Translations under genes and position numbers: made by a program
From: Desulfamplus magnetovallimortis
GTDB taxonomy: Bacteria; Desulfobacterota; Desulfobacteria; Desulfobacterales; Desulfobacteraceae
Length of the DNA stretch: 64,000 bases
Direction of reading: 5' to 3'
NCBI RefSeq assembly: GCF_900170035.1
Contig: NZ_LT828551.1
Location: forward strand, 104,163-168,162
Notes under the pieces: model-generated
The model's database searches: none
What the model saw: the letters and a program-made list of their open reading frames with translations, nothing else
What the model was told of the DNA's origin: nothing
In this document: piece by piece, positions 40,110 through 63,703 of the stretch
Layout of the letters: each line of letters begins with the position of its first letter
Position numbering within the stretch: position 1 is the stretch's first letter

Positions 40110-40475
40110 TTAAGAATTACGAATCTTTTGTTTCATTGTTTTTTGGATGCTCCCGATAATTTTCATTATCTCTTCGCAATCCTTTAGCAATGAATCCTTT
40201 TCATATGATTTAATAAATCCACTGTCCGATAACAATCTTATCCAGTAATGAGTTTCTCTTGATTCTTTGTAGGCAATACTCATTTTTGATAGAAAATCTT
40301 TACTTGATTGTCCGCCAATTGCTTCCTCCACATTTGCTCCGATCGATGTGCCACTTCTTAGAACCTGTTTCCCTAAAACATATTCCTGTTTTTCACCCTT
40401 GAGATAGCGATAAAGCTTCACTATTCGCAAAGCAAACGCATAACTCTTTTCTTGAATAATATTATCACGTTTCAT
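40110..40475 (-). CDS. Four-helix-bundle protein (23S rRNA intervening-sequence protein family), commonly inserted in type I R-M operons
   Basis: Family sequence ...SIGANVEEA.G..S..DF..K..IA.KE..ET.YW. Confidence 0.75.
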   Translation of the reverse strand: MKRDNIIQEKSYAFALRIVKLYRYLKGEKQEYVLGKQVLRSGTSIGANVEEAIGGQSSKDFLSKMSIAYKESRETHYWIRLLSDSGFIKSYEKDSLLKDCEEIMKIIGSIQKTMKQKIRNS

Positions 40476-40567
40476 TCGTAATTTCTAATTCCTAACTCGC
40501 AATTGAATAATATTATCACGTTTCATTCGTAATTTCTAATTCCTAACTCGCAATTGAATAAATTTCC
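40452..40567. repeat. 51-bp tandem duplication (2.3 copies) spanning the start codon and 5' leader of the four-helix-bundle gene
   Basis: ttgaataatattatcacgtttcattcgtaatttctaattcctaactcgcaa occurs twice in tandem, then a partial third copy. Confidence 0.9.
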
Positions 40568-45147: not shown

Positions 45148-45385
45148 AGCATTGTCAATACTGTCTGAATCAAGATGTCCAGGATTAACAGGATAATGCA
45201 GGATTATTAATCTTGAACATCATTTTTATCTTGGTTATCTTGGTTATCTTGGTTATCTTGGTTATCTTGGTTATCTTGATTATCTTGATTATCTTGATTA
45301 TCTTGATTATCTTGGTTATCCTGATTATCCTGATTATCCTGATTATCCTGATACTGACTGATTCAAACAGATTCAGACAGATACG
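45148..45385. repeat. MITE-like element variant carrying a 9-bp microsatellite (atcttggtt/atcttgatt/atcctgatt, about 14 copies at 45228-45352)
   Basis: The 5' part attgtcaatactgtctgaatcaagat...gattaacaggataatgcaggat matches 5048-5110; microsatellite read directly. Confidence 0.65.
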
Positions 45386-53172: not shown

Positions 53173-53757
53173 TCATGCCCGTTTACTGTACAAACCATCG
53201 GTAGCTATATGGTTCACACCATGGGAGATTAAGTATTCTTTGTTCTTTTTGATTTGTTGAAGATAGAAGTCGATGCGGTTTTCTTCTTCTTCACCAATTT
53301 CATAGCTGGAAGGGGTTTGCTCAACAGAGAGATTGTATGCGGTATTGTAGTCCAAATCGATAATTGCGAGGGATGAAATCTCTTGACCTTTTTGGGACTT
53401 ACCCGCAACGCCACTCCAGAATTTGTCTATCCCATAGCTATGCTTACCTATTTTGGGAACATAAGAAGCATCTATAGCAGCTATTCGTTTATTGGTATTT
53501 GGGATAGTGTCCATAATCAGCAGGTGATTGAAAAGTGTAAAATCGAATGATTTTCTAAAATTTCTCGAATAACTTTTCTCATTCAAATTGCTATAGCGCC
53601 CCATGTTGCGAAAGTTCATTCGACCTTGTAGTAGCATTATAGTTGAAAAAAGTGTCAGTAAAAATTTATGCTGATGTTTGGTTATTTTGGACAAAATACA
53701 GTTTATTGTTCTCATAGAGATCTCCTTTGTTGGACTGTAATGTTGTGTGTAAAACAT
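53173..53757 (-). mobile_element. IS701-like (IS4 superfamily) DDE transposase, C-terminally truncated remnant
   Basis: AAIDASYVPKIGKHSYGIDKFWSGVAGKSQKGQEISSLAI resembles the IS701 DDT...K.GK.S.GV..QY.G..GK..NCQ block; the second Asp region ATDGLYS is present; the catalytic Glu region is absent. Confidence 0.55.
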
Positions 53758-53840: not shown

Positions 53841-56800
53841 TTATAAATTTAGTTGCTGGTGATTCAAATAGTAATAAAGACCTTTTTTGCCCATAAGCTC
53901 TTCATGGTTTCCCTGCTCAACCACCTCACCCTTATCAAGGACAATAATGGTATCTGCACTGCGAACAGTACTCAGACGATGGGCAATGATTATGGCGGTT
54001 CTGTTTTTTAATATTGTATCCATGTTTTTTTGTATAGCCTGTTCAGACTCAATGTCCAGAGAACTTGTGGCTTCATCAAAGATAATTATTCCAGGATTTT
54101 TATATAGAACACGGGCAATGGCAATCCTTTGCATCTGTCCACCTGATAACTGCAATCCAGATTCTCCAACCTTTGTTTCATAACCATTGGGGAAATTAGA
54201 GATAAAATCATGTGCATTGGCAAGCTTTGCTGCGGATATAATTTTTTCCATTGTGGCAGAAGGATCATCCGAAGAGATGTTGTCCCCAATTGTTCCACTG
54301 AATACAAAGCTGTTCTGGAGTACATAACCCACATTGGATCTTAAAAAGGAAAGATTTAAATTTTTGATATCAAAACCACCAACTGATATTGAACCTTCAT
54401 TGGCATGAAAAAACCTTGCTATGAGGTTTACAAGGGTTGTTTTACCTGATCCGCTGCGTCCCACAATGGCACATCTTGTTCCAGCAGGAATCTCGATATT
54501 GATATTGGATAGAATCCAGGGGTCATCAACACCGCCATATCTAAAAAATACCTGTTCAAATCTTATATTGCCGGAAAGCTTCTCCATGACTATGCCCGGG
54601 GATTTACCATCCCTTTCACCATATTCGGTTTTAGCTGCAAAAACATCATTGAGGCGGTCAACCGAGACCAGGGTCTCCTGTAGTTGATCCCATACAGTTA
54701 TAATTCGATTAATGGGGGTGACAACGCTTCCCATGAGGGCCATGAAAGCCATGAGTTCACCAACTGAAATATTATGTTTTATAACTTCATGGGCACCATA
54801 CCAAAGGATAATAGTGGAACCAAGTGTTCCCATGAAATCGCCAAGGGAGTGGAAATATATTTTTAGATGGCTGAGGGAAAACTCTATATTGATACTTTTT
54901 ATAAATTTGTTTTCCCATTTCCATCTTATCTGATTTTCAAGGTGCATCGCTTTTACTGTATCTATGGCCTTAATGGATTCAATCATATGGGATTTTGCTT
55001 CAGCTCCGGCAGCAAAGGCATCAATATTGAGCTTTTTTAAAAACGGAGTAAATCCAAGGGTGATGGCAATGAAAAAAGGGATAAACAAGATCACAAGAAG
55101 AGTCATATTGGCGTTATAATAAAGCATAAGCCCTAAATAGATTATGATGAGAAAGGTATCCAGAACAACGGTCAAAGCTGTCTGAGTCATAAAAGTTCTT
55201 ATTTTTTCATTTTCACCAAACCTTGATACAAAATCGCCAATTTTTCTGGCCTTAAAGTAACCAAGGGGCAATGCCAATAGATGTTTGTAAAATGAAACCA
55301 GCATACTTATATCAATTTTCATGCTTGTATGTACAATTAGGTACTGCCTGACAATGGTTATCAATATTCTGAATATAAGAACAATAAGCATTCCTATTAA
55401 CATAATGTTAAGAAAGGATATGTTTTCGTGGTACAATACCTTATCAACTATATTCTGGGTAAAAACAGGGGTGGCAAGGCCAAGTAAATTCAGGAGCATG
55501 GACGCAAGGAAAATCTCTGCAAGGATCATTTTATGGGGAGTAACAAAACCAATAAATTTTTTCAGGGAAGATTGTTTATCCACCTCCTGGTTACCCAAAA
55601 GTGGTGTGGGTTCAATAATAAGGGTGATTCCATTCCAGTTATCTGAAAAATATTCCCTGTGGTATTTTCTGAGACCCATGGCCGGGTCTGCAACCCATAC
55701 ATATTTTTTTGAAACTTTGTAAACAACACAATAGTGGTAACCCTGCCAGTGAATAACACAGGGCAACTTTATATCAAGGAGCCCATCAAATTTGATTTTT
55801 ATCCCCCTGGTCAAAAAGCCCAGGTGTTCAGCTGCCGAGGCAAGGTTGGAAAGGGTTACACCTGAGTTATCTGCGTGGGAAAGCTCGGAAATTCTGGCCA
55901 GGGAAAATTTTTTCCCATAAAAACGGGAAATCATCACAAGACAGGCAGGGCCGCAGCCCATCTCGTCATGCTGTCTTACAAAGGGAAAACGCAATCCGTG
56001 GTATTTTTTTTTCGCTGTGGATGGGGATGATGTATCTATGGTGTTCTGCTCTACCTCCGGTGGCTTTTCCCTGTAATCCCGGGTTTGATTCAATTCCCCT
56101 TTGTTGTGTTCAGGTTGTGTGTCTGTATATATATTTGGGGTGATATTGGGGGGAGATATGGAGCGATACTGGTGCAGTCTGTCGGAGAATAGCGATTTAA
56201 GATCCGGGGATTTCTGGATCAGTTCTTTAAATGTGTCTCTGCTCAATGCAAAAAGATGACAATTTGTCAGACAGACAACATCTGCATATCGTGGGCTATC
56301 CTCAATTAGTGCCTTTTCCCCGAAAAATTCCCCCTGGTGAAGAAAATTAATTATACTTTGATCTCCATCTTCCCATTTTATAACCTTTAATTTCCCCGAT
56401 TCAATTAGATAAAATTTATCAGGCTCATCCCCCTGCCTGAAAATCCCTTCCCCTGCCATAAAGGATTCTGGGTTGAAATTTTTCACAATCTGCTGTACAT
56501 CCTTGGGCTTTAGAGGAGATAAAAGGGAGCAACCCTTTAAGAAAAGCTGAATTGATGTGGAATGGATAAACTTATCAAAATAACCACGGATTTCAGGTTT
56601 GCTGAAAACAAATTTTTCAAAGATTTCATTATCTATGGCTATCAAAAGAGATTGTTCAACAGCCCTTGCTGCTGCATTTCTGGGTCTATGGGAAATCAGG
56701 GCAGTTTCCCCAAAGTGATCTCCACGGGTTCTCACCCCCATGTTGATCTCTTTACCGCTGTTGTCCTTGAAAATAATTCTGATTCTGCCGCTGTATATGA

Positions 56801-56987: not shown

Positions 56988-58568
56988 TTAATCACAGCAG
57001 ATAATTTCTGTTTGATTAATAAACCAGGATAGCTCCATTCTGATATGATAATATTTTCCCACAAGCATAAGATACTCCTGTTTAAGTGCTAAAAGTTCAT
57101 ATTCTGATGCTATAAGTTCTTGCTGGTAATCAAGGAGATTAATTACTGTTGTTCTTTCCTGAACAAGCCTTTCAACTTCATTTTCAAGATTCTGCTTTGA
57201 AAGGGCGACAATCTCACGGGAATATGCAATTTGCCTGTCAAGGTCAGTGAGGTCATCATATATTCCAATTATCTCTTTTTTAAGTTCCGCAGTTCTTTTT
57301 TTAATGCTGTTATCAATATTTGTTATCTGTTTTTTTACAATTGAAATCCGTGCATGGTTTCCATCCTGTTTCAGGGGAATTTCAAAGGATGTTTTAAAAG
57401 CCATGAAATGGTTGGCAGTATCAATATCTTTAAAAGCTCCATCCAATCCATTTGGGTCATATCCATTGATACCGGCCTGGAAAACAACGTCAAGTTTTGG
57501 TTTTGCCCTGTCCAAGGCAATAAGAAGATCCTGCTCAAGTTCCTTTTTACTATATTCAAGGGAGATTAAAAAAGAATCCATTGCCAACACATGTTCAATT
57601 GTCTGTTCCTTTGAAGCAGGTTTAAACAAGTTAATTAATGATTTTGAACATGTCACAAGTTGCAGGGTTCCATCCAATCGGTATTGGGAACTGTTATTGT
57701 AAATTAAAAGGAAAAGATTTTGTAGATAGCCATCCCTTTGATTTTCCAGCTCTAAAATCTTTCGCTCCTGGAATATATGGGCGGCTTTCATTCTGTTAAG
57801 ATCTGTGATGGTCATATATCTAAGGGCTACTTTTTGCTTTATGATTTTATAAAGCTTAAAGGTTCTATCACGAATTTTTTTTTGTAAACTTAATCTTTTG
57901 TTAATAAAATAGAGATAGTAGTATTGATTGAACATCTTAAATATTGTGTTGCTTAAGATAATCTTATTTTCCTCTTCTGATCTTTTTAAATTTATTTTTG
58001 CTTTTTTAATGGGGGCATTTGTTATTTCTTTTCCCCTTCCCTGCATAACAGGCTGGTCATATTCCATGAAAAATGAGCTTTGATATTCTTTTGGGCTTTC
58101 AATGGAATAGATATATTCTATCTCTTCCATTGAAGCTGTTACATGGATAGATTCCTTGCCGCCAAAAATATTTTTTCGGCTTATCCCTGTAGTATATAAT
58201 TGAATATCCCATGCAAGATAGTTATCCACATTTAGGCTGTTATATCGCCTCCTTTCAAAGGTGCTGTCTGCCTGAAATCGGGGAATGAAGATCTCTTCCT
58301 GGATTGATAGGTTTTTTTCTGCAATATCCCTTGAGACAGTGCTGCTCTGGATATCCATGCTATTTTTAAGGAGATCATTTTGGGCTGAGTAGAGAGAAAG
58401 GGAAGATAAGGTCTTTGCATTATCATTATCCAAGGCATAATTATCCCGTGCATAATATGGACTATCCTTTTCCATGGCAAAAGTAATATTAAAGGAAAAA
58501 GAAATGGTAGAAAGAAACAGAGTTAGTAATGTTAAACTGAATAATATTAAAATAGATTTTCCTGTCAT
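56988..58568 (-). CDS. TolC-like outer-membrane efflux protein (putative), co-oriented with and upstream of the PCAT gene
   Basis: Signal peptide; two long heptad-rich helical halves; context. Family assignment is tentative. Confidence 0.5.
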   Translation of the reverse strand: MTGKSILILFSLTLLTLFLSTISFSFNITFAMEKDSPYYARDNYALDNDNAKTLSSLSLYSAQNDLLKNSMDIQSSTVSRDIAEKNLSIQEEIFIPRFQADSTFERRRYNSLNVDNYLAWDIQLYTTGISRKNIFGGKESIHVTASMEEIEYIYSIESPKEYQSSFFMEYDQPVMQGRGKEITNAPIKKAKINLKRSEEENKIILSNTIFKMFNQYYYLYFINKRLSLQKKIRDRTFKLYKIIKQKVALRYMTITDLNRMKAAHIFQERKILELENQRDGYLQNLFLLIYNNSSQYRLDGTLQLVTCSKSLINLFKPASKEQTIEHVLAMDSFLISLEYSKKELEQDLLIALDRAKPKLDVVFQAGINGYDPNGLDGAFKDIDTANHFMAFKTSFEIPLKQDGNHARISIVKKQITNIDNSIKKRTAELKKEIIGIYDDLTDLDRQIAYSREIVALSKQNLENEVERLVQERTTVINLLDYQQELIASEYELLALKQEYLMLVGKYYHIRMELSWFINQTEIICCD

Positions 58569-58845: not shown

Positions 58846-59028
58846 TTTATAAAAATACAAACAGGATAACTTACCTAAAGCATAACAATGAAGGGTAGTG
58901 TCATAAAAGTGTTGATTTCTTTTTGTGAAAGCCCTGCTGAATCAAGGTTTGTGAAGAGCTCATCAACATATTTGGGACACCACCCAATGAAGTTCATATT
59001 AACACAAATAAAATAAGGAGAAATAATC

Positions 59029-59253
59029 ATGGCACGTATTCAAATTAAAGATCTGGCAGAGAATCAGACAATTTCAAAAGAAGACCTCAAAAGAGTAAAG
59101 GGCGGTTTTGTTATGATGGATAATGTGTTCAGTGGGATTACACCTGAATATAAATTCTCACCTGAATATAAATTCTTTAACACTGCCCAGTTTATCACTT
59201 CAGGTCAACTGGTGGAAAATATGGAAAGTATTTTATATGAAAAATGGTTCTAA
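59029..59253 (+). CDS. Double-glycine (GG) leader peptide precursor: 26-aa leader plus 48-aa Cys-free aromatic-rich core with PEYKF(S/F) repeat
   Basis: Leader MARIQIKDLAENQTISKEDLKRVKGG fits the GG-leader consensus (hydrophobic at -4, -7, -12; acidic at -8/-9; GG at -2/-1). Strong SD aaggag 8 nt upstream. A cognate C39 transporter sits 460 bp away. Confidence 0.7.
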   Translation: MARIQIKDLAENQTISKEDLKRVKGGFVMMDNVFSGITPEYKFSPEYKFFNTAQFITSGQLVENMESILYEKWF

Positions 59254-59307
59254 ACACCCATTTACCAGTTCATATGAAAAATGGATCTAAACACCCATTT
59301 ACCAGTT
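59234..59307. repeat. 37-bp tandem direct repeat (2 copies) spanning the precursor stop codon (tatatgaaaaatggttctaaacacccatttaccagtt / catatgaaaaatggatctaaacacccatttaccagtt)
   Basis: Read directly. Confidence 0.9.
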
Positions 59308-59464: not shown

Positions 59465-60568
59465 ATGGAATGGACAGACCAAATGACAACTGCACGAATA
59501 ATTGATTATCTTCCTGATATTTATAATGGAATCCTACCCGATTTTTTTGAAAAAACAATTCCAAGGGAAACGGCTGCCACATGTGAAAGTTGTGCCATGT
59601 GGCAGCCTGCAACAACATCGGGCAAGGAAAACAAGACTTTGAGATCCTTTTCCAGGGAAAGCAAATGCTGCACCCATTATCCCAATATCCCCAACTATCT
59701 CCTTGGGGGATTTCTCTCCCATAAAAAAAGTGACGATGCCAAAAAAATCCTGGATATTATTTCAAATAGCCCAGGTCACACCCCAAGGGGTATAGTTCGC
59801 CCCAAAAAAATTCAATTCCTTATGGAGAATTCCCAACGCAGCTTTTTTGGAAGATCAAAAACCCTTATATGTCCATTTTTTGACAAGGAAAAAGGATATT
59901 GCACCATAAGACCCTTTTGGGATGCTGTGTGCAACACCTGGTTTTGTAAGTATGTCAAAGGTTATGATGGATTTCAGTTCTGGGTGGCGATTCGGAAATA
60001 TTTAAGCTATGTGGAACAGAGTTTAATACAATTTGCCATGTACAACTTGAATTGTAATCCCGAAAATATAGAAAACCTGGTTTCCAATGAACAGCCAGGG
60101 CCTTTATCACTGGGAGATCTTGACGATTTGCCTCTGGATAGAAATAGGTATCTTTCGCAATGGGGAAAATGGGCTGGACGTGAAATAGAATTTTATAAAA
60201 AATGTTATGAACTGGTCTTAAAAATGACAAGGCCGCAGTTTGAAGAGATTACAGGTATTACCCAGAAAATAAACCTTGCCGTTGTAAAATCAAAATACAG
60301 TGATCTTTTCTCCACAGATCTGCCCAGGGTATTAAAGAAAAATTCGTCCATGGTTGAAGAAAAGATAGAAGGGGATCAATATCTGATCATGGGTTATTCC
60401 ATGATCGACCCATTTCTAGTACCCAAAAAACTCTATGAAATACTAAGTTTTTTTGATGGTAACCAGGATGTTGAAGCTACCTGCAAAATGATAAAAGAGC
60501 ATACCGGTTTTGTCCCTGACCATGACCTGCTTGTGGAACTTTACCGCTTCAGGATTCTTACTACTTGA
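59465..60568 (+). CDS. Cysteine-rich protein of unrecognised family (C-x2-C...CC and C-x9-C-x9-C-x4-C clusters), co-transcribed with the GG-leader precursor; candidate peptide-modifying or accessory enzyme
   Basis: CESCAMW...KCCTHYP and CPFFDKEKGYCTIRPFWDAVCNTWFC; weak resemblance to YkgJ/FliB-type CxxCxxCC metal-binding proteins, not confident. Confidence 0.5.
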   Translation: MEWTDQMTTARIIDYLPDIYNGILPDFFEKTIPRETAATCESCAMWQPATTSGKENKTLRSFSRESKCCTHYPNIPNYLLGGFLSHKKSDDAKKILDIISNSPGHTPRGIVRPKKIQFLMENSQRSFFGRSKTLICPFFDKEKGYCTIRPFWDAVCNTWFCKYVKGYDGFQFWVAIRKYLSYVEQSLIQFAMYNLNCNPENIENLVSNEQPGPLSLGDLDDLPLDRNRYLSQWGKWAGREIEFYKKCYELVLKMTRPQFEEITGITQKINLAVVKSKYSDLFSTDLPRVLKKNSSMVEEKIEGDQYLIMGYSMIDPFLVPKKLYEILSFFDGNQDVEATCKMIKEHTGFVPDHDLLVELYRFRILTT

Positions 60569-61140: not shown

Positions 61141-61770
61141 TTACGATGTTTTTTTGCTATCCGTAACAGTAAATGGTTGATTTATTATTCCACTGCACCA
61201 TTCATTCCAAATAACCTCTTCAACAACCCTTTGTACCTCCTCACTTTCAGGCGATGGTTTTATAAGTTCTTCAAGTTTTACAATATAATGGAAACCATCA
61301 ACCTCAAGGGGATCTATTATCGTGCCAGGCTCGGATGTGAAAATTTTGGATGCTAAATCAGAAGGAAGCATATTTCTGTATATAATTCCAACATAACCGG
61401 ATTTCCACTTGAGATCATCATCTGTGTTGTATTGCCTTGCAAGGGTATGAAAATCCTCTCCATCCTCTTCAATTCGCATCATAAGTTCATTTGCAAGGTT
61501 CTTTGAATCAACTATGATTTGGGATATCCTTGCCTTTTCAAACTCTGCTCTGTGTGCCATATAATAATCAAGAACACTCTTTTGCGTGGCCATCTCTTTT
61601 TTTATCTTTGAAATTAATATTTTTGCTTCACATAAATCTTCATATATATCCTGGTTAATGGCAATGCGATGGAAAAAGGCAAGGGTTTCATCTGCTGAAT
61701 TTAAACCTGTTATTAACCTGTAATGATCTGAAAATTGTGTCAGCTCTTCATCTGAAACAGATATACCCAT
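61141..61770 (-). CDS. Parvulin-type peptidyl-prolyl isomerase with N-terminal chaperone-like domain
   Basis: ARISQIIV...EDGEDFHTLARQYNTDDDLKWKSGYVGIIYRNMLPSDLASKIFTSEPGTIIDPLEVDGFHYIVKLEE matches the parvulin/rotamase fold pattern. Confidence 0.7.
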   Translation of the reverse strand: MGISVSDEELTQFSDHYRLITGLNSADETLAFFHRIAINQDIYEDLCEAKILISKIKKEMATQKSVLDYYMAHRAEFEKARISQIIVDSKNLANELMMRIEEDGEDFHTLARQYNTDDDLKWKSGYVGIIYRNMLPSDLASKIFTSEPGTIIDPLEVDGFHYIVKLEELIKPSPESEEVQRVVEEVIWNEWCSGIINQPFTVTDSKKTS

Positions 61771-62045
61771 CTCCTCTGCCTTTTGGAAAATCTCCTTGAT
61801 ATGTACAATTTCAGATAAAATCTTGTCAGCCCTGCCTGAAAAAAAGAGATAGGTTATTATTTCTTCTGGTTGAATTGCATTATATTGAACAGAATCAGAC
61901 TGAGTAGAACCGGATTTTGCAGAACCGGATTGAATGGAGAGATGTTTTTTTTATGAAAATTCCATGTTTTTACAATTTGGAGGTTTTCATTATTGTTTTG
62001 GGGAAGTGATTCGTCATGGCAGTTATACAAAATTTCCATATATTT

Positions 62046-62255
62046 ACTCCTTTGATATATCATCATCAAGGTCAGGGTACAATTCCTTTGTACAATCAGG
62101 GCAGATTCCATGGCTAAAATGGGCATTGGAATGTTCCATGATAAAAGTTTCCAGTTGATTCCAATATCCACTGTCATCCCTGATTTTTTTGCAGGATGCA
62201 CATATTGGGATTAAACCGCTCAAAGTCTTGACCTGATTTAAGGCAGTCTGGAGTT
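62046..62255 (-). pseudogene. Start-less 70-codon remnant encoding the Cys-rich module ...PICASCKKIRDDSGYWNQLETFIMEHSNAHFSHGICPDCTKELYPDLDDDISKE*, the same domain as the C-terminus of the response regulator at 12168-12875
   Basis: Manual translation of the minus-strand frame; the frame opens right after a TAG with no usable start codon; the overlapping track ORF (61857-62201) is in a different frame. Confidence 0.45.
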
Positions 62256-62389: not shown

Positions 62390-63703
62390 TCATGGGGTTT
62401 TAAAAGCAGATACCTTATTATAAAAAATGGAAAGCAGGCTTTTCTTTTCGGTAATCATTTCAGCAACTGCAGTCATTCCGGGTTTTAAGGGACAAGATCG
62501 TCCATGTACATTAAATGATCTATTATTTAATGCCCCTTTTACCTTATATACAAACACTCCATGTTTTTCCTCAATGGCTGAGGGAGATATGGCAATTACA
62601 TATCCGTTAATTGTTCCATAATCCCTATGGGGAAATGCATCAAATTTATATTTTACAGGCATATCAACTTCAATGAAACCAATATCTTTGTTTGCAACTG
62701 TGATATCCATATAATATGGTTCATCTGCTGGAATAACAGTACATAAAACAGTTGATGGGTTTACATATTCTCCTTTGTTTAAAAAAAATAGCCTGGAAAC
62801 AATGCCGGATTTTGGTGTAAAAATGTTATACTCCCCTGTTTTTTCATTGGAAAGTGCATTAACTTTACTGGAACCATTAAATTGCAATTCATTTTGGAGC
62901 TTTCTAAGCTTTGCCTGTAAGGAGTTCATGGTATTTTTCTGTTCAAGCAATATGTTTTCTATTTTTTTATCAATAATATTTTCTTGATTTTTCTTTTCAG
63001 CCTCTGTTTTTTTAATATTTTGGGCAATAATATCCTTCTCTTTTAGAAAAATACGTTTTTGTGAATCAAGTTTTTTAACTTCGGTTTTTGCCAATTCAAG
63101 GCGTCCTTTTACGCTATTATATTCAGCAATGGATGTTAATTGCTTTTTGAAAAGTATCTGGGTATTTAAAAACTCCTGCTTTCGATTTTCGATCTCTTTT
63201 TTCCAGTAAGTAAAGTCACTTTGAACCTGTTCAAGGGATATGGATATTTTTTCCATGGAAAGAGCAAAGGAGTGTTTCATATTTTCCAGCTCATCTTTTA
63301 AGTACTCTATCTCTGTTTCCATGGCATCAATAAGGCTTTTATAGTATCCTTTTTTAAATTCAATCTCTTCCTGAACAGATTTCAGTTCTGAATATTGGGA
63401 CATATTGATTCTGGTTTTTATGGTAAAAAGTAGATCTCCTTCATCCACAAAAGCACCATTTTCTATGGATATCTTATCTATAAAACCATGAAATTCAGAT
63501 ACCACCTGCATTTCATGGGACAAGGGGCGGACAATAGCACTGCCTTCACGGATGATATCCACTTTACAAAGGGCGGAATAGAACAAAATAGATATAATTG
63601 CCAAAAAAATAATGTAAAGTATCCCCCTGGCATAGATGGAGGGCATACGCTTTAATTGCTCAACAACAAAAAAATTATCATAATTTTCATTGGTTGATAA
63701 CAA
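62390..63703 (-). CDS. HlyD-family membrane-fusion (type I secretion / bacteriocin export) protein
   Basis: N-terminal TM, long coiled-coil, C-terminal beta-barrel ...GMTAVAEMIT.KKSLL..F..; family-typical. Confidence 0.85.
   Translation of the reverse strand: MLSTNENYDNFFVVEQLKRMPSIYARGILYIIFLAIISILFYSALCKVDIIREGSAIVRPLSHEMQVVSEFHGFIDKISIENGAFVDEGDLLFTIKTRINMSQYSELKSVQEEIEFKKGYYKSLIDAMETEIEYLKDELENMKHSFALSMEKISISLEQVQSDFTYWKKEIENRKQEFLNTQILFKKQLTSIAEYNSVKGRLELAKTEVKKLDSQKRIFLKEKDIIAQNIKKTEAEKKNQENIIDKKIENILLEQKNTMNSLQAKLRKLQNELQFNGSSKVNALSNEKTGEYNIFTPKSGIVSRLFFLNKGEYVNPSTVLCTVIPADEPYYMDITVANKDIGFIEVDMPVKYKFDAFPHRDYGTINGYVIAISPSAIEEKHGVFVYKVKGALNNRSFNVHGRSCPLKPGMTAVAEMITEKKSLLSIFYNKVSAFKTP

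Follow-up and report, generated by a model that had tools for sequence, protein, structure and literature searches.

The 64,000-nucleotide stretch of the Desulfamplus magnetovallimortis genome analysed here (hereinafter the window) contains a 74-residue ORF that is divergent from the genes for an outer-membrane efflux protein (OEP) and a PCAT, and directly upstream of a gene for a 367-aa protein that we term F367 (Table 1). This arrangement raises the question of whether the ORF encodes a genuine peptide precursor for the adjoining transporter, and whether its core is modified before it leaves the cell. We find that it is a gene of a conserved leader family and very probably encodes a precursor peptide, with predicted cleavage after a Gly-Gly motif and export by the adjoining transporter.

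Table 1. Features of the precursor locus, in window coordinates
Feature	Position	Strand	Basis and remarks
DDE_5 transposase fragment	53173..53757	-	Pfam; flanks the cluster, context for rearrangement
PCAT, 1039 aa	53841..56960	-	Pfam; two cNMP-binding domains, C39 peptidase, ABC membrane and ABC ATPase domains
C39 peptidase domain	55605..55988	-	Gln, Cys, His and Asp align with PCAT1
Outer-membrane efflux protein (OEP/TolC-like)	56988..58568	-	Pfam; divergent from the precursor, 460-bp intergenic region
Shine-Dalgarno AAGGAG	59015..59020	+	read from sequence; 8-nt spacer to the ATG
Precursor peptide gene MTBBW1_1680052	59029..59253	+	leader-HMM match; 74 aa and stop
Leader, residues 1-26	59029..59106	+	N-terminal box RIQIKDL and GG box ISKEDLKRVKGG
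Core peptide, 48 aa	59107..59250	+	acidic, 23% aromatic, Cys-free
18-bp x2 in-frame tandem duplication, perfect	59141..59176	+	TRF, 100%; gives PEYKFS/PEYKFF
37-bp x2 tandem duplication, 95-97% identical	59232..59305	+	crosses the stop codon; protein unaltered
F367, 367 aa	59465..60568	+	alignment, predicted structure; eight-Cys domain, helical domain, C-terminal RRE
F367 Cys-rich region, residues ~33-165	59561..59959	+	alignment; weak PF03692 in 2/25 members
F367 RiPP recognition element (RRE, PqqD-like), residues ~285-367	60317..60565	+	Foldseek
SurA_N-like protein, 135 aa	60714..61121	-	Pfam; TIGR04500-related; no signal peptide
PpiC-type rotamase-like protein, ~246 aa	61141..61881	-	Pfam; TIGR04500-related; first canonical start 61770
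HlyD-type membrane fusion protein	62390..63703	-	Pfam

The precursor gene and its leader family

The translation of the ORF consists of the leader MARIQIKDLAENQTISKEDLKRVKGG followed by the core FVMMDNVFSGITPEYKFSPEYKFFNTAQFITSGQLVENMESILYEKWF. The original prediction's account of the ORF, of the strong Shine-Dalgarno sequence before it and of the leader positions holds when read against the window sequence: Val is at -4, Leu at -7, Ile at -12, Asp at -8, Glu at -9 and Gly-Gly at -2/-1, the Gly-Gly and the three hydrophobic positions being those that mark GG-leader substrates. Such peptides are processed by PCAT/AMS proteins, as in ComA/ComC, the substrates of LahT and the colicin V system CvaC-CvaAB-TolC, all of which the window leader resembles in its Gly-Gly, its hydrophobic and its acidic positions. 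An Rfam search of the gene and its upstream region gave no near-threshold match, and a promoter and terminator scan at the locus gave signal no higher than background. Spurious ORFs of similar length are numerous in the window, which has 40% GC; it is the match to the leader HMM, not ORF length, that sets this one apart from chance.

Short ORFs of the sister loci share the start MARIKIKDLPK(D/E).K(I/V)S.EE(L/M)K....GG and thereafter diverge fully. The residues invariant in family alignments (I6, D8, L9, G25 and G26) are all present in the window leader, which departs from the family at two nearly invariant positions (K5Q and P10A), a point that counts against our model. A first leader HMM, seeded with 11 other peptides and the window peptide, recovers the latter as a typical member at 54 bits (E 1e-14), a score somewhat inflated by its own place in the seed. 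The leader-HMM search of six-frame translations from 85 loci and the window picks up some 35 distinct peptides, with E-values from 1e-16 to 1e-7; in the window the precursor is the only copy. A standard single-sequence search with the window peptide returned nothing except the query itself, an illustration of how easily short ORFs of this kind are missed; this blind spot was bypassed via neighbour-guided loci and the leader profile. The conserved homologues on which the original prediction had staked itself are indeed present: a 25-peptide profile run against 5.8 billion proteins finds the leader in at least 107 protein clusters, all unnamed and 41-108 aa long (the window peptide scores 65 bits, again somewhat inflated by its presence in the seed alignment), and short ORFs with the same leader occur at about 11 independent loci beside homologues of the window's neighbouring genes. 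Support independent of the seed-biased HMM comes from an exhaustive phmmer search of 1.84 billion representatives that used only the window peptide as query and retrieves two family members, P0146 and P0147 (E 1.6e-5 and 2.8e-4).

Neither Pfam nor NCBIfam has a model for this leader family, and we found no description of it in the literature searched. The Bacteroidota families TIGR04149 (GG_sam_targ_CFB; 12.2 bits, E 0.12, cutoff 25) and NF047798 (leader_Chryseo; 12.6 bits, E 0.13, cutoff 23.5) have a similar C-terminal leader half (..SKEELK.I.GG), but the window peptide scores below both cutoffs and differs from them in phylum, N-terminal box and partner genes. For an NHLP or Nif11 leader domain the precursor, with a leader of only 26 aa, gives no NCBIfam match at E<=10. 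Leader-like N-termini on radical-SAM (rSAM) and GT enzymes were ruled out, the matches being weak and internal.

The leader appears to be bipartite, with an N-terminal RI(K/Q)IKDL box and a C-terminal GG box. The former is the extra element (MARIKIKDLP) that distinguishes this family from the known GG-leader/PCAT systems; it is conserved beyond the known needs of C39 peptidases, and therefore a second protein probably reads it. Similar N-termini are seen elsewhere in these clusters. Sister clusters (L004 6402-6605; L003 12794-13003; L001 11970-12236; L089 9490-9684; also L009 ~612, L012 ~448 and L015 ~358) have a conserved PhdYeFM-antitoxin-like protein of ~67 aa, which starts with M(T/P)KIKIKDLE, i.e., the seven-residue box of the precursor, and the SurA_N-like protein of the window uniquely starts with MIKIKDLEF where its homologues have MAKKNEIEI.

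Export machinery and cluster layout

The PCAT gene is 2.1 kb from the precursor and divergent from it. Its Peptidase_C39 domain (Pfam, E 1e-36) retains the catalytic residues aligned with those of PCAT1 (4RY2), namely Gln (in VRQHD), Cys (GCGPACL), His (YHYCVV) and Asp (VADPAMG), and a nearby processing transporter predicted to be competent is thus available. With an adjoining PCAT, an HlyD protein and an outer-membrane factor, the locus resembles Gram-negative type I microcin export. It differs from the characterized GG-leader/PCAT systems in the two N-terminal cNMP-binding domains of its PCAT, in the acidic core of its peptide and in the addition of cytoplasmic SurA_N/PpiC-like and RRE proteins. 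The transporter scores 539 bits against TIGR03796 (NHLM_micro_ABC1), below the cutoff of that model. The same unusual cNMP, C39 and ABC architecture is found in HetC of Nostoc PCC 7120. In vivo, HetC depends on its nucleotide-binding domain, to which ppGpp binds; no substrate has been assigned to it, no GG-leader gene being known near hetC (PMC10986499). In contrast, the candidate substrate gene of the window adjoins the transporter, which has two cNMP domains.

The rotamase-like and SurA_N-like proteins, both of which are devoid of a signal peptide, score 66.5 and 51.4 bits, respectively, against TIGR04500, whose cutoff is 180 bits; they are, judged by sequence, related to this family but outside its curated bounds. 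The SurA_N-like protein is 39-47% identical to its cluster homologues. The homology of the rotamase to its 247-aa relatives runs in open frame 37 codons upstream of 61770 (61770-61881 (-)), an extension that has no ATG, GTG or TTG; the protein either uses a non-canonical start or is N-terminally truncated. A true TIGR04500 protein, MirC of the rosaritide system MirA-D (PMC13097080), co-purifies with a graspetide synthetase, for which it is an essential partner, and its cluster likewise includes a PCAT gene. What the two systems have in common is a RiPP precursor and a PCAT encoded together with a cytoplasmic partner that is SurA-chaperone-like and PpiC-related. However, the window has no ATP-grasp enzyme, its TIGR04500 scores are below 180 bits, and what MirC does as one protein would here be split over the 135-aa SurA_N-like and ~246-aa PpiC-like genes.

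The cluster is conserved. The order OEP-PCAT(cNMP)-HlyD-rotamase-SurA_N-precursor(s)-enzymes recurs in the sister loci L001, L003, L004 and L089, and the window contains homologues of all the L001 OEP, cNMP-PCAT, HlyD, PpiC and SurA_N genes in a rearranged order. In the sister clusters the PpiC rotamase measures 247 aa and the SurA_N-like protein ~136 aa; between one and seven short ORFs accompany them, together with F367, B12-binding radical-SAM enzymes and, often, the small Phd-like protein. A second rSAM, a GT2-TPR protein or a 375-aa protein without a Pfam match is found in some loci as well. The ~690-aa rSAM of these clusters scores 581 bits against TIGR03975 and is a RiPP maturation radical SAM C-methyltransferase. 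With this enzyme and PCAT/HlyD export, the sister clusters resemble proteusin-type/TIGR03975 (NHLP/Nif11) clusters, from which the window differs in its short GG leader and in having no radical-SAM gene. A precursor lies directly upstream of the F367 homologue in L001, L007, L008, L009, L014 and L015. Relative to L001, L003 and L089, the precursor-F367 pair of the window is inverted and the OEP-PCAT pair relocated, and as a result the precursor is divergent from the OEP gene. A tblastn search of the whole window with three rSAM types gave nothing below E 0.26, and homologues of the Phd-like, F375b (the recurrent ~375-aa protein) and GT-TPR proteins are absent from it; the B12 radical-SAM of TIGR03975 type is found in the sister loci and not in the window. 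A tblastn search against plasmids gave no match. The D. magnetovallimortis locus represents the cluster in rearranged and minimal form: a single precursor, a single tailoring candidate and, in the window, no radical-SAM gene.

Among the accessory genes, F375b has no Pfam or NCBIfam match and recurs in sister clusters at 44-53% identity (L003 11397-12530 (-); L004 6743-7870 (-); also L005, L007, L009 and L012). A 59-aa ORF between the HlyD and rotamase genes of the window (62044-62223 (-)) is Cys-rich (ICASCKKIRDD...FSHGICPDC), which suggests a small zinc-ribbon-like protein; it has a weak Pfam match to DZR_2 (E 0.04).

F367, a candidate reader of the leader

F367, for which NCBI calls a 361-aa version starting at 59483, has no Pfam or NCBIfam match. 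Its 38 homologues (27-48% identity) define an alignment with 28 invariant residues, all kept in the window protein. Six of the eight conserved Cys are among these invariant residues; C40 and C43 fall just short of full invariance and are present in the window protein as well. The Cys are arranged as C40-x2-C43, C68-C69 (in KCCTHYP), C136 (in CP), C146, C156 and C161. In the AlphaFold model (pLDDT 85.4, pTM 0.85) the C-terminal ~85 residues are predicted to form three strands followed by three helices, i.e., the three-stranded sheet and three-helix winged helix of RREs, and Foldseek matches them to known RREs, namely leader-bound TbiB1 (probability 0.99), TruD, LynD and TigE. Hence, the predicted fold is that of an RRE.

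The Cys-rich N-terminal part has no solved homologue by PDB sequence search, and comparisons with Pfam, NCBIfam and hhalign assign it to no catalytic family. PF03692 (CxxCxxCC) does not match the window F367 and is weakly matched (E 0.005) by two of 25 relatives; hhalign against E. coli YkgJ gives a probability of 0.6%, aligning only a G.C.I...C motif. We consider that the eight-Cys domain probably binds metal or Fe-S. A possible analogue is FliB, a flagellin lysine methylase that depends on [4Fe-4S] and SAM and has eight conserved Cys and a Cys motif of a similar kind (PMC8598068): F367 resembles it in size (~370-400 aa), in being largely helical and cytosolic and in the number of Cys. However, its Cys spacing is CxxC...CC and not CX4CX3CC, the comparisons above do not establish a significant sequence or profile similarity to FliB or PF03692, and it has a C-terminal RRE that is not known in FliB. 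As an analogy, FliB is attractive given the Lys-containing PEYKF units of the core.

The wider F367 family spans at least 334 reference species, mainly Myxococcota, and its members are mostly not beside PCATs or recognizable GG peptides, often standing alone in unrelated contexts. Leader-family precursors, in turn, also exist without F367 (L088), and therefore the pairing of F367 with the leader is not obligatory. GG-leader ORFs with other leaders flank F367 homologues in Propionivibrio, Desulfuromonadales, Sandaracinaceae and Lysobacterales loci; among Myxococcota, clustering of the small ORFs beside F367 homologues is swamped by high-GC synteny noise. The family, with its combination of RRE and eight Cys, has no Pfam or NCBIfam model and no description in the literature searched.

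The core peptide and its possible fates

The original prediction described a core rich in aromatics and free of Cys. Its counts of 3 Tyr, 1 Trp, 2 Pro and no Cys stand; its 8 Phe and 4 Lys are corrected to 7 Phe and 3 Lys in the 48 residues, four further Lys being in the leader. The core has a net charge of -3, a pI of 4.4 and a predicted unmodified monoisotopic mass of 5751.73 Da; its aromatic content of 22.9% compares with a family mean of 9.0 +/- 4.8%. The tandem PEYKF units are real and derive from the identical copies of the 18-bp duplication, yet they do not constitute a conserved repeat motif, the DNA duplication being very recent. Together with the 37-bp duplication, both lying within 170 bp, it forms a local cluster at the precursor, in a window where tandem arrays are not rare (12 per 64 kb). 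The window also has a perfect 51-bp x2.2 tandem repeat (40452-40561) and a 9-bp x14 array (45226-45352), both unrelated to the precursor.

The window core has just three relatives, P0096, P0082 and P0146, with the pattern ..(T/K)PTHKYPEY(K/N)PFN.DFPQY... The window precursor has in common with them the rarer S(K/R)EDLK leader variant and a high aromatic content, and a BLASTP alignment contiguous through leader and core shows 47% identity over 51 residues (GITPEYKFSPEYKFFN against GTTPTHKY-PEYKPFN). Core-only similarity to the KYPEYKPFN peptides has a shuffle p of 0.0006, or 0.008 without the duplication, values uncorrected for ~100 comparisons. By itself the core is suggestive of kinship with these peptides, and the contiguous leader-to-core alignment supports it, making the relationship probable. 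Downstream of the genes for the three relatives come one or two B12-binding rSAM genes, and the contigs available contain no F367. Recent tandem duplications have reshaped the window core into a variant specific to its lineage.

Other family cores also have internal short tandem repeats, such as TGIS x3 and Ser/Gly-rich runs (L010 3521-3808 (-); L007 19720-20031 (-)), and duplication or slippage, as in the 18-bp repeat of the window, is suggested as a general path of core diversification. Several core subfamilies are shared between loci. An abundant one has (F/L/I)(N/D/G)PQPEPP soon after the Gly-Gly (L001 9136-9339, 7418-7639 and 7758-7967; L008 538-717; L060 9391-9642; P0051, P0053 and P0076), and TVSAKQPYLQSGYYLESDPYVINDPSP and RPTSFARICYPPTFIGLKV are further recurring types; we found no mention of any of these three in the literature searched. 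Another subfamily resembles the T6SS tube protein Hcp (PF05638) over its first 25-30 positions with E 5e-6 to 3e-4, two members exceeding the gathering score; it includes L001 7235-7414, L003 5710-5877, L012 2956-3135, L015 527-739 and L008 319-501, along with P0044, P0046 and P0070, the last of which matches the Hcp C-terminus (positions 91-129). In a further subfamily, comprising P0106, P0109, P0139 and L012 2275-2610, the matches are sub-threshold and to Tox-PAAR-like (PF13665; 22-27 bits, cutoff 31), which makes two T6SS-related sequence types that follow this GG leader.

What, then, becomes of the window core? Lanthipeptide and sactipeptide thioethers involve core Cys, and the core has none; the original judgement that such chemistry is unlikely is borne out, and the lack of Cys is normal for these hypervariable cores, 77 of 104 of which are Cys-free. 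That judgement had left the peptide either unmodified or otherwise modified. We favor the latter, given the RRE encoded by the adjoining downstream gene. The unmodified reading would make the product a class II bacteriocin- or microcin-like export peptide whose leader serves the PCAT only, with F367 acting elsewhere or as a chaperone or immunity factor. It draws on the want of a radical-SAM or other recognized modifying enzyme in the 64-kb window, on the frequently solitary F367 homologues and on an F367 N-terminal domain that matches no catalytic family. Against it, the RRE fold is directly downstream on the same strand, in the position seen at about 10 other loci, and the leader box exceeds what C39 needs. 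Moreover, class II bacteriocins are cationic and membrane-active, and an acidic core is atypical of them. On these grounds, we consider export of an unmodified peptide unlikely.

Less likely still, in our estimation, is that the locus is a decaying remnant that lost its cognate B12 radical-SAM upon rearrangement, with a precursor that may be translated but is no longer matured. The nearest core relatives do have the downstream B12-rSAM that the window lacks, the gene order is disrupted as described above, a transposase fragment is present, a canonical start codon is missing from the rotamase gene at the point at which its homologues start, and two recent duplications lie in or beside the precursor gene. 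However, the invariant leader residues, the Shine-Dalgarno sequence, the catalytic residues of the PCAT and the invariant residues of F367 are all intact, both duplications keep the reading frame or the protein, and an rSAM could lie outside the window. A chance ORF is effectively excluded: the abundance of spurious ORFs and the want of close homologues to the whole sequence speak for it, but the HMM and phmmer E-values, the conserved position and orientation relative to F367 and the strong Shine-Dalgarno sequence speak against it.

Accordingly, the account that we prefer, and hold to be reasonably probable as a whole, is that the ORF is a functional precursor of a conserved GG-leader family, exported by the PCAT after possible tailoring by F367. 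The precursor would be translated from its strong Shine-Dalgarno sequence, and its RIQIKDL box, whose alternating hydrophobics fit a β-strand, might dock on the F367 RRE, the best candidate reader, or alternatively on the TIGR04500-like SurA_N/PpiC partners. The bound core may then be modified by the eight-Cys domain of F367. The C39 domain, given its conserved residues and what is known of its family, is predicted to recognize the amphipathic GG box and cut after G26, and the 48-residue acidic, aromatic-rich core would leave via PCAT-HlyD-OEP, with export probably gated by a nucleotide ligand on the two cNMP domains. Counting against this account are the loose association of F367 with the leader family, the rearranged locus without the sister rSAM, Phd-like and F375b genes, with its adjoining transposase fragment and a rotamase that has no canonical start where one is expected, and the pairing of the nearest core relatives with B12-rSAM enzymes, none of which is in the window. 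A more specific proposal, which we put forward as speculative and rather improbable, is that F367 represents a new class of leader-guided RiPP maturase, in which the RRE would present the precursor to the eight-Cys domain; this would be a metallo- or Fe-S domain of a type not recognized before, perhaps akin to FliB, and would act on Lys or aromatic residues in PEYKF-like cores.

GG-leader precursors exported by PCATs are of an already known kind; what is new is a leader family with an extra N-terminal box, paired with a cNMP-domain PCAT and TIGR04500-like proteins, and an uncharacterized protein combining an RRE with eight Cys. The window instance is a minimal, possibly degenerate, member of the family. 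If the preferred account is true, the leader would offer a compact tag by which the many exported, hypervariable peptides of Desulfobacterota, Nitrospirota, Latescibacterota and relatives could be mined, F367 would be a candidate scaffold for a new tailoring enzyme, and there would be a cNMP-domain PCAT with adjoining substrate genes, which HetC lacks. For reconstitution, the simplest version of the cluster is that of D. magnetovallimortis, which has a single precursor and a single RRE protein and, within the window, no rSAM. Should F367 prove to be a maturase, the family would constitute a new RiPP class exported by a nucleotide-gated PCAT and, because the substrate genes adjoin the transporter, the first tractable model for the gating of cNMP-domain PCATs.
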